64,000 bases of DNA from Acidimicrobiales bacterium (GCA_052148655.1 JBKQHU010000145.1:33227-97226); one strand, 5' to 3'. Counted from the stretch's first letter, positions 1-3,615 are shown. Translations and numbers: made by a program. Notes: generated by a model not told the origin, from the sequence alone.

Positions 1-549
1 CACTCTCCGGACGATTTCGCGAACTATGTCGTAGACGGCCTGGCTCGCGAAACAACGCCACCGCAGAGAAAGGAAGTCTCCGGCCTTCACTTCGGAGCGT
101 TCCGCTCATCTGAAGGTCGTGTCGAGCCGGTCTTTTTTCACATCCGTAATACGTACGATTTCGACGGCGAGAAAGGCGTGCACTTTAACATCGGAGACTT
201 CTGGAGTGAGGAGCAGTTAATGGGTCGCGACGTCCAACGTATGCGATGGAGCCCCAGTCACGTGCGGAACGAACTTCGGAAGCTCCAACAAGCGCAAGGC
301 CTGCCTCTTTGGTATCGCAACGGTGATCTTGCCATGTTTCCCAAGGTGACCGGCATGCTCCAGTTTGCATTCATGCAAATAGGCCACCTCGACGGCTACG
401 GGTCGCCGAGCAGCCTCGAAGCCTGGGAGACACTTGCACGGACCATGGTTATCACTACGACCAAAGTAGCCCGCTGCTTCAGTCGAGCGCCGTTCCCGAC
501 GATCGGAGACTCGGCAAGAGTGCTGGGCGAGCCATGGCCCACGCGGTAG
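1..549 (+). CDS. hypothetical protein, N-terminus lies upstream of the window
   Basis: Frame 1 is open from base 1 to the TAG at 547-549 (the ORF track only shows it from the internal GTG at 178). No motif recognised. Visibly more AT-rich than the window bulk. Convergent with 616..1137. Confidence 0.45.
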   Translation, partial: HSPDDFANYVVDGLARETTPPQRKEVSGLHFGAFRSSEGRVEPVFFHIRNTYDFDGEKGVHFNIGDFWSEEQLMGRDVQRMRWSPSHVRNELRKLQQAQGLPLWYRNGDLAMFPKVTGMLQFAFMQIGHLDGYGSPSSLEAWETLARTMVITTTKVARCFSRAPFPTIGDSARVLGEPWPTR

Positions 550-615
550 GCCATAAGTCCGAGTGGGCAAGCGCCACTAAGGACTCGGGGCTGTCCACGT
601 TCGGACCTACCTAGG

Positions 616-1137
616 TCAGGAGATAACTGGCACGCCAGCGATATATGGAGACAGCCCGGTTGGGTAACGGCGGACGAAATTGTTCATATTCGTCTGATAC
701 GGTTCGGTTCCGATCACTCCGGCAAGCCATCTACGAGCCGAGCCGACCATCTCCAGACAAAAGTCCTGCACATCGATGTTTAAGGCGTCATTCAAGATGT
801 TCATATGGGCGTGCACGGGTGACTGAACGCCCGGTTCGATGAAAACAATCCGTGTGTACCCCTGGCCAGTCCGTCGCGTGCGTCCTTGATGCAGGAAGGA
901 ACACCGAAACCTGTAGCAGCTTTCGCCGTTGAGAAAAGGCTGATGAGTCCGAACATTAACGTGCAGTGGAGCGACATGAGTGTCAAACCAGCGTTTATAT
1001 CTTAGGCCGGAGGCTAGGCCGTTTTGCGACTCCAGAGCACCGCATATGTCGGGTATGACAAGTGCACCCAACAAAGCCACGTAATAAAGCCGACTGTCGC
1101 TTGCGGCGGCCTCCAGCTGACCGAGGAAGTCATCCAC
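616..1137 (-). CDS. hypothetical protein (173 aa), last gene of the Rep operon
   Basis: GTG start at 1137 preceded by GAGAGGGG 5-6 nt upstream, and only 29 nt downstream of the HTH gene stop. No family recognised. Notable motifs are IPDICGALE and CYRFRCSFLHQG. AT-richer than neighbours. Confidence 0.5.
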   Translation of the reverse strand: MDDFLGQLEAAASDSRLYYVALLGALVIPDICGALESQNGLASGLRYKRWFDTHVAPLHVNVRTHQPFLNGESCYRFRCSFLHQGRTRRTGQGYTRIVFIEPGVQSPVHAHMNILNDALNIDVQDFCLEMVGSARRWLAGVIGTEPYQTNMNNFVRRYPTGLSPYIAGVPVIS

Positions 1138-1166
1138 GAGAGCCCCTCTCTGTCCTTGAATACACG

Positions 1167-1412
1167 CTACGCGCCGTTCGTGTCCGAGTCCGTTTCGAAA
1201 GTCACCTCACCGGCGGCGCGGCACAGGTACCTACGGTAGACGGTCGCACGGTGCACTCCGAGTGCCGAAGCAATGTCCGCAACGCTCACTTCTTCGTCCC
1301 TCGCTGCCGACACCGCCTTACGCATAGCGTCCTCAAGCACGACCATTGCCTCGCCGAGTCCCCGAATCCGCCCGACTGCCTCGCGACTACTCAACCGACG
1401 TTCCACCCCCAC
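1167..1412 (-). CDS. small helix-turn-helix DNA-binding protein (Xis / resolvase-HTH-like)
   Basis: The segment VSVADIASALGVHRATVYRRY is a typical HTH. The ORF overlaps the Rep stop by 22 nt and sits where xis lies in actinomycete integrative plasmids. Start codon uncertain (GTG 1412 or ATG 1346). Confidence 0.55.
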   Translation of the reverse strand: MGVERRLSSREAVGRIRGLGEAMVVLEDAMRKAVSAARDEEVSVADIASALGVHRATVYRRYLCRAAGEVTFETDSDTNGA

Positions 1413-2257
1413 CAGCGCATCAATGGGCCGAGCCAGTCCTCAACGTCCTCCGATCGCCACTCGGCTCTCGGGAGCTCGCCACCGAATCGCTCAACGAGGA
1501 GATCCCGCAGCCCATCGTCGGACTCACCCAACAAGTCCTCTACATGCGGTTGGAAGCCCTGGCCGACGTCGTAGGCATGTCGACCACGCCCGGCTTCGAG
1601 CTCCTTTCCCACGTAACCGGCCAGGCCCTTAGCGATGTACGCAGCAAGTTGCGCTCGGGAGTGACTGCCTCTTTCCTCGGAACCGACGTTCTCCCGTTGA
1701 CTGAACTGAACGATCCCGTGGCCCCACATCGCAGTCAAGACGGCATGTGGCCAGAAGCCCCTCAGAGCGAGGTGAACGTGCCATGCGTGGCCCCCTGGAT
1801 GCAGCTCCAGCGCCCAAACGTACGGGAGTGGCCCGTACCTCTTACGCAGCCGTTGAATGAACCTTGCCACGTGGCGCTGTACCACGACTCGATCCCATTC
1901 CCCGCCCTCCTTGGCATACGTGAGGGTCCACAGCGTGTCGAGGAGGTTCGCCTGGCAATAGCGACGAATCCTCGTCTGAGCACGTCGCAAGGACCGCTCA
2001 CTCCGAGCCTCGTCATCGCTAGGCTCGGCCGACTCGCTCCCGGCCTCCGGATCGGGCCGCAGCGACGACTCGTCCCGATCTTGAGGCCTCCGCTGCCAGA
2101 CAACGAGCTCCCCAGTTTGCGGATAGAACTTCCCCGCCCACGGGGCTAGGTCGAGTTGTGTCCTATGGTCAAGTGAAAAGGCCGACCGGCGCGACGCGTC
2201 GGTCGCTCCGCCGCTCTCGCACGCGCACCGATCGGCTCCATCACGCGCCGCCTCCAC
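1391..2257 (-). CDS. rolling-circle replication initiator (HUH Rep, actinomycete plasmid/AICE RepSA-like)
   Basis: Motifs TLWTLTYAKE, HUH-type HAWHVHLAL and tyrosine motif AAYIAKGLAGYVGKE match my recollection of pC194/RepSA-type Rep proteins. N-terminal start uncertain. Confidence 0.7.
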   Translation of the reverse strand: MEAARDGADRCACESGGATDASRRSAFSLDHRTQLDLAPWAGKFYPQTGELVVWQRRPQDRDESSLRPDPEAGSESAEPSDDEARSERSLRRAQTRIRRYCQANLLDTLWTLTYAKEGGEWDRVVVQRHVARFIQRLRKRYGPLPYVWALELHPGGHAWHVHLALRGFWPHAVLTAMWGHGIVQFSQRENVGSEERGSHSRAQLAAYIAKGLAGYVGKELEAGRGRHAYDVGQGFQPHVEDLLGESDDGLRDLLVERFGGELPRAEWRSEDVEDWLGPLMRWWGWNVG

Positions 2258-2603
2258 CGCTCTGCCGCCGAAGTTGCCGCCAACGTTCCCGCCGACGTTT
2301 GGCCTTTCGGCTATCTGCCCGACAGCTGCGGCTCTTGTGGCCTATGCACTGGCACCGATAACACACGACCCACGGACAGTCCTTCGCCTCATGGCCCGGC
2401 GACTTGCACTCGCGACAAATCGGCCCTTCCGGGCAAAAAATGCCCGGATGCGGTCCACCACACCGCTCGCACACCGTACGGTACGGGCAAGACGACGCCG
2501 TGTGGTCGTCCTCGTCGCACAGTGAGCAGCGGCCGCCGCCCCGCGGCGTCCGGGCGTCACCGCCCGTCCGCTGCGTCGCGTCGTCCCTCTCGCCGCTAGC
2601 CAC
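2241..2603 (-). CDS. basic protein with four tandem CCHC zinc knuckles
   Basis: Read directly from the sequence: CSLCDEDDHTASSC, CERCGGPHPGIFC, CRECKSPGHEAKDC, CYRCQCIGHKSRSC. That is three perfect CX2CX4HX4C knuckles and one CX2CX3HX4C, followed by an R/K-rich tail. The ORF overlaps the upstream ORF by 8 nt and the Rep start by 17 nt. Confidence 0.7.
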   Translation of the reverse strand: MASGERDDATQRTGGDARTPRGGGRCSLCDEDDHTASSCPYRTVCERCGGPHPGIFCPEGPICRECKSPGHEAKDCPWVVCYRCQCIGHKSRSCRADSRKAKRRRERWRQLRRQSGGGGA

Positions 2604-2856
2604 GGTACGTCCGATCCGTCAGCTCTTCCCGCTCCGCCCGCGTAAGTCGAGGGAGTGGCAGCCGATCCGCCAATGCGAGGCCGTAACCGCGCGCAACTCG
2701 CTTGACCACGGCAGCCGCCCCAACAGCCGTGCCGCCCCTTTGTGCGTGCTCACCGAGCGCGAACAGCAAGTCGCCGTAGAAGCGCTCAACGTCGATTCCA
2801 TCCATATGAGGTACCTCCGAGTCGATGACAACTGACAGTCCCTCAGGACTTGCCAT
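2596..2856 (-). CDS. small hypothetical protein (86 aa), first gene of the Rep operon
   Basis: ATG at 2856 is preceded by GGAGG about 10 nt upstream. The TAG stop overlaps the GTG start of the zinc-knuckle gene. The longer 2596..3267 frame looks like GC-driven open frame upstream of this start. Confidence 0.45.
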   Translation of the reverse strand: MASPEGLSVVIDSEVPHMDGIDVERFYGDLLFALGEHAQRGGTAVGAAAVVKRVARGYGLALADRLPLPRLTRAEREELTDRTYRG

Positions 2857-3615
2857 CGACTTGGAGCCTCCTCGTGCTTCGGAGCTGTGTTGCCCAGGCG
2901 GCCCACTGTCCTGGAACTCCCCGGCAGCGGATCGTGCTGCCGACCACGGGACCGGAATGGCACCCGGCCTCTTCTCAGTTTCAACTGCGTCCTGAAAGAC
3001 AGAATCAAGAATAGGCGGGGGCTGCGCGCCAGTGGGGGATCCTCGCGATCCTGCGTCGGCCTGTCGCACGTCGCGACATCCCAACCCGTAACGCGACATA
3101 ACGGACATTATCGGCGGTCTGGAGGAGTGCCGGTCAGACCTGTTTGCTGGCACTTGCCCTTCTAGGCGCATCCTCGTCGTCCGTAATGGTGCGTATCTGG
3201 GTGACTTCGGACTCGCCGGGGCAAGAGGTTTTGGGACGGTTGCCCGCTTGAGGCTCGGTGTCGGCATGAGTGTTGGGCCCGGTGCGCGGATCTTGGCATG
3301 TCTTTCGACCGTGATGCGACCCTCTCGGACTGTGCGTCGAGTCTGTGGAGGCCTGGGAGCGTCGCACAGGTTCAGGGACCTTGGGACCGCAGGGGCGGTC
3401 CGGGCAGGTATGTAACGAAGCTGTAATAGAAGATCCGGGCTGTGCGAATGGTGATCCGTCGAGACCGCGAGGAGAACAGGCGGCGATGTGGCCCGGGAAT
3501 CGGCTCGGAGCGGTCGCGACGGCTGCGTCCCTCCCCGCCATCGCGGGCGATCTTGCAGGGGCTTGTTGCTGCGAGACTTGAGGACGAGGTGGGAGCGCGG
3601 TCAACTGTCGGGACG

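Follow-up and report, generated by a model that had tools for sequence, protein, structure and literature searches.

A 64,000-nucleotide stretch of DNA from an Acidimicrobiales bacterium of a peat bog (GCA_052148655.1, JBKQHU010000145.1:33227-97226), here called the window, carries at its left end an element which, with good confidence, is an integrating mini-plasmid that replicates by rolling circle, of the IMEX (integrative mobile element exploiting Xer) kind, lodged at the chromosome's dif. It is a discrete unit of 3,737 bp between copies of a perfect 25-bp direct repeat, and it extends from window position 3107 leftward to about 630 nt beyond position 1. Its contents are a two-tyrosine HUH rolling-circle initiator (Rep), a small helix-turn-helix (HTH) protein, a CCHC protein with four knuckles, and cargo, besides a conserved Zn-ribbon/orf86 module placed around the attachment site. 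Like other IMEXs it sits at the host dif, is flanked by two direct dif-like sites of which one is complete, and has no recombinase of its own: none was recognised among its seven open reading frames (ORFs) using Pfam, PHROG, NCBIfam and PADLOC (the Zn-ribbon ORF was screened by Pfam only). Nor is any transfer or capsid gene recognisable in the element, and no member of its family has a transfer or virion gene. An attachment site that is the host dif explains the missing integrase, and host XerC and XerD are, judging from the sequence, most likely the recombinases used. With no integrase to detect, a first-pass annotation of the window had seen here an orphan replication module.

The boundaries were defined with the help of two public contigs, found by an exact-protein look-up with orf173 and both 100% identical to the window over the overlap. 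These are L001 (NCBI GCA_052915705.1), which reaches 9.4 kb to the left of window position 1, and L002 (Logan run SRR31840465); identical copies of the element are present in three assemblies. Self-BLAST of the window together with L001 revealed the repeat TGTCCGTTATGTCGCGTTACGGGTT, composed of a central region, a XerD arm and 8 further nucleotides, in two copies which match at 100% over 25 nt with a spacing of 3,737 bp. The right-hand copy lies at window 3083-3107 on the minus strand and the attR copy at L001 3098-3122, about 630-654 nt left of window position 1. On the right the repeat is part of a full dif-like 28-mer (attL; 3091-3118, minus strand) made up of the XerC arm ACCGCCGATAA (3108-3118), the hexamer TGTCCG (3102-3107) and the XerD arm TTATGTCGCGT (3091-3101). 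This attL is an intact dif, with host XerC arm, central region and XerD arm, still able to serve in chromosome dimer resolution. At attR the same central region and XerD arm are preceded by a degenerate, element-derived XerC-like arm, GCCGCGGGCTT. The attP predicted for the element reads ...GAGCCGCGGGCTT-TGTCCGTTATGTCGCGTTACGGGTT-GGGATGTCGCGAC....

The empty site was found in a conspecific metagenome contig, L021 (Ga0181526), in which a single repeat stands between the two host flanks. Over its full length this contig matches the composite of window and L001 less the 3,737 bp at 99.87% across 2,352 columns, with 100% identity in the adjacent 268-aa gene. So exact an empty site shows the element to be a precise, recent and naturally polymorphic insertion. 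The first-pass annotation had proposed comparing relatives for presence or absence of the segment, and the segment is indeed polymorphic, being absent from L021.

That annotation had also observed, correctly, that no integrase is in view, and it had offered two explanations: an element extending leftward with a different architecture, or an immobilised remnant whose Rep operon was still intact. The element does run off the left edge of the window, but neither explanation survives. The sequence to the left, which it had recommended for inspection, adds only some 630 nt of element, with no int, FtsK/TraSA-like, spd or tRNA gene; no integrase, Tra or spd gene lies in the 9 kb to the left, and the att direct repeat that was to be looked for is there, at 25 bp. 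ARAGORN detected neither tRNA nor tmRNA genes in the window or L001, and no RNA family was found by Rfam in window 1-8000 at E<=1. The perfect 25-bp boundaries, the exact conspecific empty site and a relative in the form of a free circle (see below) contradict immobilisation. The host genes beyond the left end of the element (L001) are ordinary in appearance and specify secreted Ig-like proteins, an ABM-domain protein and PAS-GGDEF-EAL proteins; among the last are two tandem paralogous genes for 575-aa products (L001 7706-9433 and 9636-11363; about 78% nucleotide identity), some 5 kb left of the element.

The two contig ends deserve mention. L002 begins at the equivalent of window 3113, exactly 6 nt outside the 25-bp repeat, so that its first 31-mer is 6 + 25 nt; this would fit a k=31 graph branch at attL if several alleles in the sample share the host arm. 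L002 was considered as a possible circle, which was ruled out: it is an integrated form with one single-nucleotide difference from L001. Position 1 of L001 (window 2467) is a contig break inside the zinc-knuckle gene with no visible reason.

A decayed pSAM2-type actinomycete integrative and conjugative element (AICE), which had lost int, xis, tra and its tRNA att site and retained the Rep operon, is a highly improbable source of this structure. It would account for the RepSA-type Rep of sister elements, for the small HTH protein that follows Rep much as xis follows rep in pSAM2, and for a truncated tyrosine recombinase 4 kb away. The comparison with pSAM2 made in the first-pass annotation holds to that extent, for sister elements at the same site do have a RepSA-type Rep (PF20199, 7.7e-16), but not for the window, whose Rep is not RepSA (no match to that Pfam family at E<=0.1). 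The recombinase piece (7154-7534, minus strand), corresponding to the C-terminal half of a tyrosine recombinase (positions 58-170 of 172 in the PF00589 profile), is, as had been noted, a remnant and the only integrase-like sequence; no other such ORF is present in window 1-10000. It lies about 4 kb beyond the right end of the element, to which it is unrelated, has no counterpart in the relatives, and is part of a separate insertion between two host genes. Decay is also at odds with perfect 25-bp repeat boundaries and an exact empty site, and with some 20 relatives (3.6-5.2 kb) and 2.6-kb free circles all of which are without int and tra. Of the properties that define AICEs, neither integrase, FtsK/SpoIIIE-type Tra, tRNA att site nor, in the window, a RepSA protein was found. 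The element is best read, from its sequence, as an IMEX and not an AICE.

The identification of the site as dif rests on its layout, its distribution and its genomic setting. It has the format of Xer recombination sites, in which arms of 11 nt for XerC and XerD are separated by a central region of 6 nt. Among the actinobacterial dif sites in the literature are those of Frankia alni (CACGCCGATAATGCACATTATGTCAAGT), Nocardia farcinica (TACGCCGATAATCTACATTATGTTAAGT) and Thermobifida fusca (ATCGCCGATAATAAATATTATGTCAAGT) (PMC3025954). The target, written in full as ACCGCCGATAATGTCCGTTATGTCGCGT, is identical to published dif in the inner nine bases of the XerC arm (CGCCGATAA) and the inner seven of the XerD arm (TTATGTC), with a spacer of 6 nt, and the pattern CGATAA-N6-TTATGTC has a single match in the window. 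When one genome per species (185,579 species) was scanned with the 20-mer core, 11 genomes were returned, all metagenome-assembled genomes (MAGs) of Acidimicrobiales or Acidimicrobiaceae from peat and soil, with one site each reading (A/G)ACCGCCGATAA-TGTCCG-TTATGTCGCGT-TAC. The site adjoins an orthologue of the rlmD-like methyltransferase gene of the window (3442-4929) in five of the 11 MAGs. A scan of metagenomes with the 25-mer yielded 26 contigs, 12 of which specify this methyltransferase (71-79% amino-acid identity) on the same side of the site. Two MAG sites (L036, L038) have the full 28-mer with no adjacent palindrome, family gene or element-related sequence, and the sequence to their right is homologous to host DNA found past attR in the occupied loci L006 and L011. 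Since these element-free sites carry it, the 28-mer is native and was not brought by the elements.

Of the 16 4-kb blocks into which the window divides, 12 have a negative GC skew (13 of 15 lie right of the site), the minus strand accounts for 63% of coding bases right of the site, and in the 8.7 kb to its left the skew is opposite. Skew and gene orientation fit, though not decisively, a site at which replication forks converge. In 35 related loci, GC skew at short range around dif proved uninformative, being dominated by the orientation of neighbouring genes and by the G-rich coding strand of the elements.

About 20 related elements, 3.6-5.2 kb in size, occupy the same site in other genomes. 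Proceeding rightward from the site their order is an orf86 homologue, Rep, the HTH protein (LGVHRATVYR), variable cargo and a Zn-ribbon ORF, which ends CCGCGGGCTW-TGTCCG-TTATGT.... Their attL is always the host XerC arm with an identical D' arm, and their attR always CCGCGGGCTW followed by TGTCCG and a D arm, intact or decayed. This constant geometry is the product expected of reciprocal exchange within or beside the central region. In several older-looking sister elements the XerD arm of attR has drifted (TTATGTCGTAT, TTATGTCCGAT and others). A Rep of the window type is present in L026 (85%), L027 (76%) and L020, and another HUH Rep type in L004, L007, L014 and L019, the L004 copy being that which matches Pfam RepSA (the pSAM2 type). 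The cargo differs from element to element: HEPN_Swt1 plus DUF5343 in L004, an 837-aa membrane protein in L007, and orf173 plus orf258 here. The L004 pair (5470-6694; Pfam 2e-10 and 4e-44) is defence- or toxin-like, which suggests that these elements may ferry conflict genes.

The site was occupied in roughly two thirds of the metagenome contigs having it together with at least 650 nt to its right. Scars or tandem ends at dif were seen in L018 (3094-3160), L037/L011 (right of the site), L020 and L007/L029. Some scarred loci have a complete dif and then a decayed second dif-like site within 20-60 nt, and others have two Zn-ribbon ends in one locus; such scars and arrays point to repeated rounds of integration and decay, as far as can be read from the sequences. 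At the window locus the host side of attR opens with a degenerate copy of the left-end palindrome of the element, and it was therefore probably a dif already rebuilt by a predecessor that the element entered.

The coexistence of two Rep types bears on whether the HUH Rep itself might insert the element site-specifically, by rolling-circle or strand transfer. HUH enzymes can cut and join DNA at specific sites, and apart from Rep no DNA-processing enzyme was recognised in the element. Elements with PF23343 and RepSA initiators nevertheless share an identical site and identical ends, HUH transposition does not generate 25-bp repeats built of a recombinase core site, and the crossover region is the Xer central region plus XerD arm. 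Insertion by Rep is accordingly given very little credence, and use of the host Xer recombinases is preferred.

When the ends of the element are joined to form a circle, the Zn-ribbon ORF continues in frame through attP into orf86, giving a protein of 218 aa. The same continuity is seen in L019, L025 and L027, and a stop codon occurs 30-40 codons past the repeat in L004, L007 and L020. Natural Zn-ribbon-orf86 fusions are present in databases, two found by protein search (P0012, P0013) and two by profile search (P0034, P0038). P0013 is encoded by a free circle of 2,564 bp recovered from three Logan runs as exact rotations with terminal overlaps of k-1 (L040, L041, L042). Its genes are the fused gene, a 294-aa Rep of the window type, the HTH protein and two small ORFs. 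Its attP, inside the fused gene, reads CGTCCCGACCG-TGCACG-TTATGTCAGGT, with a near-consensus XerD arm and central region and a degenerate XerC arm. The family thus exists as small free replicons, and asymmetry of the arms is a family trait. A scan of viral contigs with the repeat gave no free form of the element of the window.

A further contig, L043 (Logan SRR32051695; 1,626 nt), has a 30-nt terminal overlap and is apparently a circle of 1,596 bp. Present on it are two HTH ORFs and a fused Zn-ribbon-orf86 gene, together with an attP-like site and a CTTGAT hairpin; it has no Rep and may be a satellite relying on Rep supplied in trans. Among 215 orf86 clusters, P0045 and P0095 read ADNVYYVRS, the back-translation being GCCGATAATGTnTAYTAYGT; they could be attL read-through ORFs from hosts with a different central region.

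Reliance on trans functions might go further, and the element might be a satellite integrated by the recombinase of a helper element or phage at a site which merely resembles dif. It encodes neither recombinase nor transfer gene, the XerC arm of its attP is poor, and the Rep-less L043 suggests that members can use functions provided in trans. The target, for its part, is single-copy, occurs in 11 species, is syntenic and matches the actinobacterial dif consensus in both arms, and the perfect 28-mer rebuilt at attL is the hallmark of elements that must spare dif. A helper is consequently considered improbable, though less so than decay from an AICE, and integration into dif by host XerCD remains the favoured reading.

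The DNA around attP is conserved beyond its coding content. To the right of the core lies a palindrome, GTCGCGACGTGCGAC (GTCGC-N5-GCGAC; 3063-3077, minus strand), one of four such palindromes in the window. Its partner, GTCGCAGGCTGCGAC, is situated in the Zn-ribbon codons on the other side of the attP core (L001 3065-3079), 63 nt away; the spacing is 64 nt in the circles. One palindrome per side is the rule in both free circles and in the four sister elements with both ends in view, L027 having a third copy just outside. The DNA is kept while the encoded residues differ (RRDVRQ as against SQDCD), which indicates a constraint on the DNA. Abutting the outer end of the XerD arm is GTTACGGGT (3084-3092, minus strand), an inverted iteron copy and the sole occurrence of this 9-mer in the 64 kb. 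Three direct iterons, ACCCGTAAC, are found outside the window directly upstream of the Zn-ribbon start codon (L001 2908-2937), and this triple iteron is retained in all eight sister loci examined (L004, L006, L007, L011, L019, L020, L025, L027). The native MAG dif also reads GCGTTACG at the position of the inverted iteron. A folded single-strand attP of the CTX kind was considered and rejected, the DNA of the attL region folding no better than its shuffles (z -0.8, +0.5).

A hairpin followed by CTCTTGGATGC lies some 85 nt upstream of the Zn-ribbon gene, an arrangement conserved in sister elements with either type of Rep. An exact CTTGAT occupies a hairpin loop in the circle L043. CTTGAT is given as the nick site of the pC194 family in PMC2440964. 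The combination GGCGGCGTCAGCCG-CTCTTGGATGC (L001 about 2830-2880, motif about 2868; some 370-410 nt left of window position 1) is accordingly named as a candidate double-strand origin.

The genes of the element were described in the first-pass annotation as five minus-strand ORFs, the first four overlapping and the last separated by 29 nt, and the coordinates bear this out: orf86 (2596-2856), the CCHC zinc-knuckle gene (2241-2603), rep (1391-2257), the HTH gene (1167-1412) and orf173 (616-1137), with the 29-nt gap at 1138-1166. The overlaps were confirmed, at 8, 17 and 22 nt for the longest ORFs; none of them is a 4-nt stop/start junction of the ATGA type. The long starts of Rep and the HTH protein are backed by conservation of the N-termini in L026/L027 (tblastn). 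Convergent with these genes is orf258, whose 3' part (183 of 258 codons) occupies 1-549 on the plus strand; it starts 228 nt left of the window (whole gene L001 1919-2695) and is separated by a 257-nt intergenic region from the 89-aa Zn-ribbon ORF, which also lies left of the window and begins with a Zn-ribbon (CPECQRP...YCSPACKQAAYRRR). Between orf86 and the repeat is a linker (2857-3082, minus strand), through which the fusion would be read in the circular form. Its G+C content by codon position (0.69/0.64/0.60) is not coding-like. Scans of window 1-3700 detected neither Sigma-70 promoters nor intrinsic terminators.

Rep matches PF23343 (REP_ORF2-G2P; E 1.9e-13) and PHROG 3419, "rolling circle DNA replication initiation" (1.2e-18). 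The first-pass annotation had taken the segment for a plasmid- or AICE-like replication module, a view that depended on Rep matching plasmid Rep families, as it does; the module is indeed foreign, plasmid-like and of the rolling-circle kind. The protein contains the motifs TLTY, HPGGHAWHVH and YIAK-GLAG-YVGK; in an alignment with eight homologues TLTY, HPGGHxxHVH and Y207/K210/Y215/K218 are invariant, so that motif I, the HUH motif and the two catalytic tyrosines of superfamily I HUH initiators are all present. Homologues are few, only 11 at E<=1e-3 in 5.8e9 proteins, one of which (P0002) is 99% identical and comes from an NCBI "Acidimicrobiales bacterium" MAG. More distant matches are to tiny plasmids of Firmicutes, to Ralstonia phage records (9.7-12.4 kb) and to one microvirus.

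These matches raise the question whether the element is a defective prophage of a filamentous, inovirus-like phage such as CTX or VGJ. The Pfam family of Rep is ORF2/G2P, the Ralstonia phage records are of a size from which we take them to be filamentous, and the classical IMEXs are mostly filamentous phages. Against this, neither the element nor those sister ORFs that were scanned yielded a Zot/pI-like morphogenesis ATPase, and no small membrane coat proteins were found with Pfam and PHROG on the ORFs. Besides Rep and the HTH protein, PHROG recognises only a single family, of unknown function, and elements of 2.6-5.2 kb are too small for a virion gene set. A prophage origin is therefore judged most unlikely, and the mini-plasmid reading is retained.

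The HTH protein (motif LGVHRATVYR; Pfam Sigma70_r4_2 and HTH_23, about 1e-5) is conserved after Rep in elements of both Rep types (tblastn: L004, L007, L013, L014, L019, L025-L028) and in circles L040 and L043. Orf86 is a conserved helical domain of the pattern FYxDLLxELGEHAQRGGTAxGAAAVxKRVA...LPLPRxTRAERE. Homologues were located by tblastn in 14 metagenome loci and three MAG loci, always about 350 nt inside attL, and a profile of the domain recovered the 215 clusters mentioned above (E<=1e-3 in 1.84e9 proteins, representatives). No match was obtained in Pfam, PHROG or NCBIfam. In an AlphaFold2 (AF2) model of the fused protein P0012 the C-terminal domain is confidently helical (pLDDT>90). Its identity as an FtsK-gamma or XafT-like winged helix was discarded, given this helical domain, a Foldseek search of the PDB with nothing below E=3, and, among PDB sequences, a sole and weak profile similarity to the E2 peripheral-subunit-binding domain (PSBD; E 0.14). 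Orf86 together with the Zn-ribbon is the hallmark of the family, and orf86 is proposed to be an attP accessory factor.

The zinc-knuckle protein (Pfam zf-CCHC, 1.3e-6) contains, besides a basic tail, four CX2CX3-4HX4C units in tandem. No homologue exists among 5.8e9 proteins, and this element alone has such a protein; the gene is absent from L026/L027 despite the sharing of Rep at 85% and 76%. Its matches among PDB sequences are exclusively eukaryotic or retroviral knuckle proteins that bind single-stranded nucleic acid (Air2, Gag nucleocapsid, Lin28), by analogy with which it is proposed to bind the single-stranded DNA of the rolling-circle intermediate.

The cargo is distinguished by its composition, G+C being 0.56-0.58 across orf173 and orf258, 0.56 for window 1-1000, 0.56-0.62 in the left 2 kb and about 0.64-0.73 elsewhere. 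Orf173 (PHROG 18591, 4e-32) has full-length homologues at 32-36% identity in 44 phage records, including 35 from Arthrobacter phages and two from Gordonia phage Bowser, in which the homologue (gp32, L044) is situated between the tail genes and the integrase; the other phages with homologues infect Acinetobacter, Escherichia and Bacillus. No match to orf173 was found in PADLOC, and a single-sequence AF2 model had a pLDDT of 35. Orf258 had no match in Pfam, PADLOC or the PDB.

From these observations the following mechanism is proposed. The excised circle would replicate by rolling circle from a pC194/phiX-like origin by means of the two-tyrosine HUH Rep, the CCHC protein coating the single-stranded intermediate. 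Host XerC and XerD would recombine dif with an attP in which a degenerate C arm and TGTCCG precede a perfect XerD arm, and dif would stay intact at attL. The module around attP, comprising the Zn-ribbon, the orf86 domain, the HTH protein, the twin palindromes about six helical turns apart and the ACCCGTAAC iteron abutting the XerD arm, would supply a site architecture or an activation of Xer that the poor XerC arm cannot; proteins of the element bound at iteron and palindromes might make up for that arm in a manner analogous to XafT. Integration would split the Zn-ribbon-orf86 frame, and the full protein could in consequence be made only from the circle, a restriction for which the case is weak because the linker in this element is not coding-like. 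Orf173 and orf258 are presumed to be exchangeable cargo.

A more speculative extension, which we consider possible but doubtful, is that the element represents a new class of IMEX which controls Xer in a new way, through its own small proteins placed beside XerD, as a self-limiting, integrase-free integration switch. Its attP has a perfect XerD arm and a crippled XerC arm and is set within a Zn-ribbon/helical-domain reading frame that integration splits. The twin palindromes frame that site, as does an iteron in contact with the XerD arm on attP and host dif alike. Were this reading right, the proteins would drive an FtsK-independent, XerD-first exchange and then be switched off by integration itself, and a bacterial four-knuckle protein of retroviral type would be the single-strand DNA chaperone of the element.

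Several points weigh against the identification of the element as an Xer-dependent, dif-integrated mini-plasmid. The dependence on Xer is deduced from sequence, no xerC or xerD gene being in view. An attP with six of 11 matches in the XerC arm and an altered inner ATAA has no described precedent, and Xer unaided might fail on it. Orf258 and orf86 are without any annotation, and either might, strictly speaking, be a novel recombinase. The attP junction of this element is in none of the 26 metagenome contigs, and the candidate origin is a motif match only. The linker looks non-coding, which makes its translation uncertain. The right-hand palindrome adjoins dif at element-free sites as well (L021, L012/L015), where it may have been left behind by earlier elements or belong to the host, and the divergent XerD arms at sister attR sites call for post-integration decay or a tandem history. 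For placement of the terminus there are 64 kb to one side of the site and 9 kb to the other, with a weak skew. Finally, the element encodes no transfer function.

The recombinase remnant mentioned above belongs to a second region of interest. Window 4930-7660 contains a cNMP-binding/thioredoxin-reductase-like gene (5117-6868, minus strand) and the C-terminal 150 aa or so of the tyrosine recombinase (7154-7534, minus strand). It lies between the rlmD-like gene and an HD-GYP gene, which are almost adjacent in L005 and L018, and looks like a second, separate and decayed insertion near dif.

Elements that exploit Xer have been worked out almost wholly in Vibrio, Neisseria and other Proteobacteria, where they carry cholera toxin and other fitness genes. 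In uncultured Acidimicrobiales of peat and soil the dif site is routinely occupied by tiny rolling-circle plasmids that swap Rep types, with cargo that is defence-like (HEPN_Swt1 plus DUF5343 in a sister element) or, as here, an accessory gene of temperate actinophages. Annotation pipelines that seek integrases will miss such elements. An attP that is the mirror image of that of TLC-phi, together with a conserved, uncharacterised module of protein and DNA, offers a concrete system for studying FtsK-free activation of Xer.

The element differs from every described type of IMEX in the asymmetry of its arms, its accessory module and the phylum of its host; no report of an IMEX in Actinomycetota was found in the literature searched, itself incomplete. 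With plasmids of the pC194/phiX174 superfamily it shares the HUH motif, paired catalytic tyrosines and a size of 2.6-5 kb, and a CTTG(G)AT motif beside a hairpin is a candidate for a nick site of their type. Such plasmids are not known to integrate site-specifically into the chromosome at dif, and no annotated Rep of a plasmid or phage is more than about 30% identical to this one, over half its length. Resemblances to pSAM2-type AICEs are the actinobacterial host, integration, rolling-circle replication, a RepSA-type Rep in sister elements and a small HTH gene after rep. AICEs are defined, in the accounts of PMC3218068 and PMC2440964, by Int, Rep and an FtsK/SpoIIIE Tra, and the best characterised of them are there described in tRNA genes; the present element is without Int, Tra or a tRNA att site.

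Among IMEXs proper, VGJ-phi and CTX-phi have a Rep of the same broad Pfam family (ORF2/G2P) and replicate by rolling circle. As outlined in PMC4246890, they use host XerCD at dif and are flanked by dif-like sites once integrated. The present element is much smaller, has no virion or morphogenesis genes and gives no sign of a folded single-strand attP. The gonococcal genetic island (GGI) is also found at dif, flanked by dif and a deviant dif-like site thought to limit FtsK-driven excision (PMC9226527), the deviant arm being that of XerD, as in TLC-phi. GGI is very large and it is its outer XerD arm that deviates, whereas the element is 3.7 kb, replicative and deviant in the inner XerC arm.

A close parallel in architecture is with TLC-phi, a Vibrio cholerae element that is likewise small, has a Rep of the rolling-circle type, lacks an integrase and resides at dif, and whose double-stranded attP has one good and one poor Xer arm and a central region identical to dif. 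In TLC-phi, the small element-encoded protein XafT activates Xer/XerD and stabilises synapses between imperfect sites (PMC9226527). In our element the degenerate arm is that of XerC, the XerD arm being perfect, which is the mirror image of TLC-phi; since the deviant arm is that of XerD in TLC-phi and GGI, the logic of control may differ. No DUF3653/XafT-like domain was found here by Pfam, attP lies in the Zn-ribbon-orf86 frame flanked by twin palindromes and an iteron, and the host is actinobacterial. By analogy with XafT, a comparable role in helping Xer across an imperfect site is proposed for the proteins of the element.

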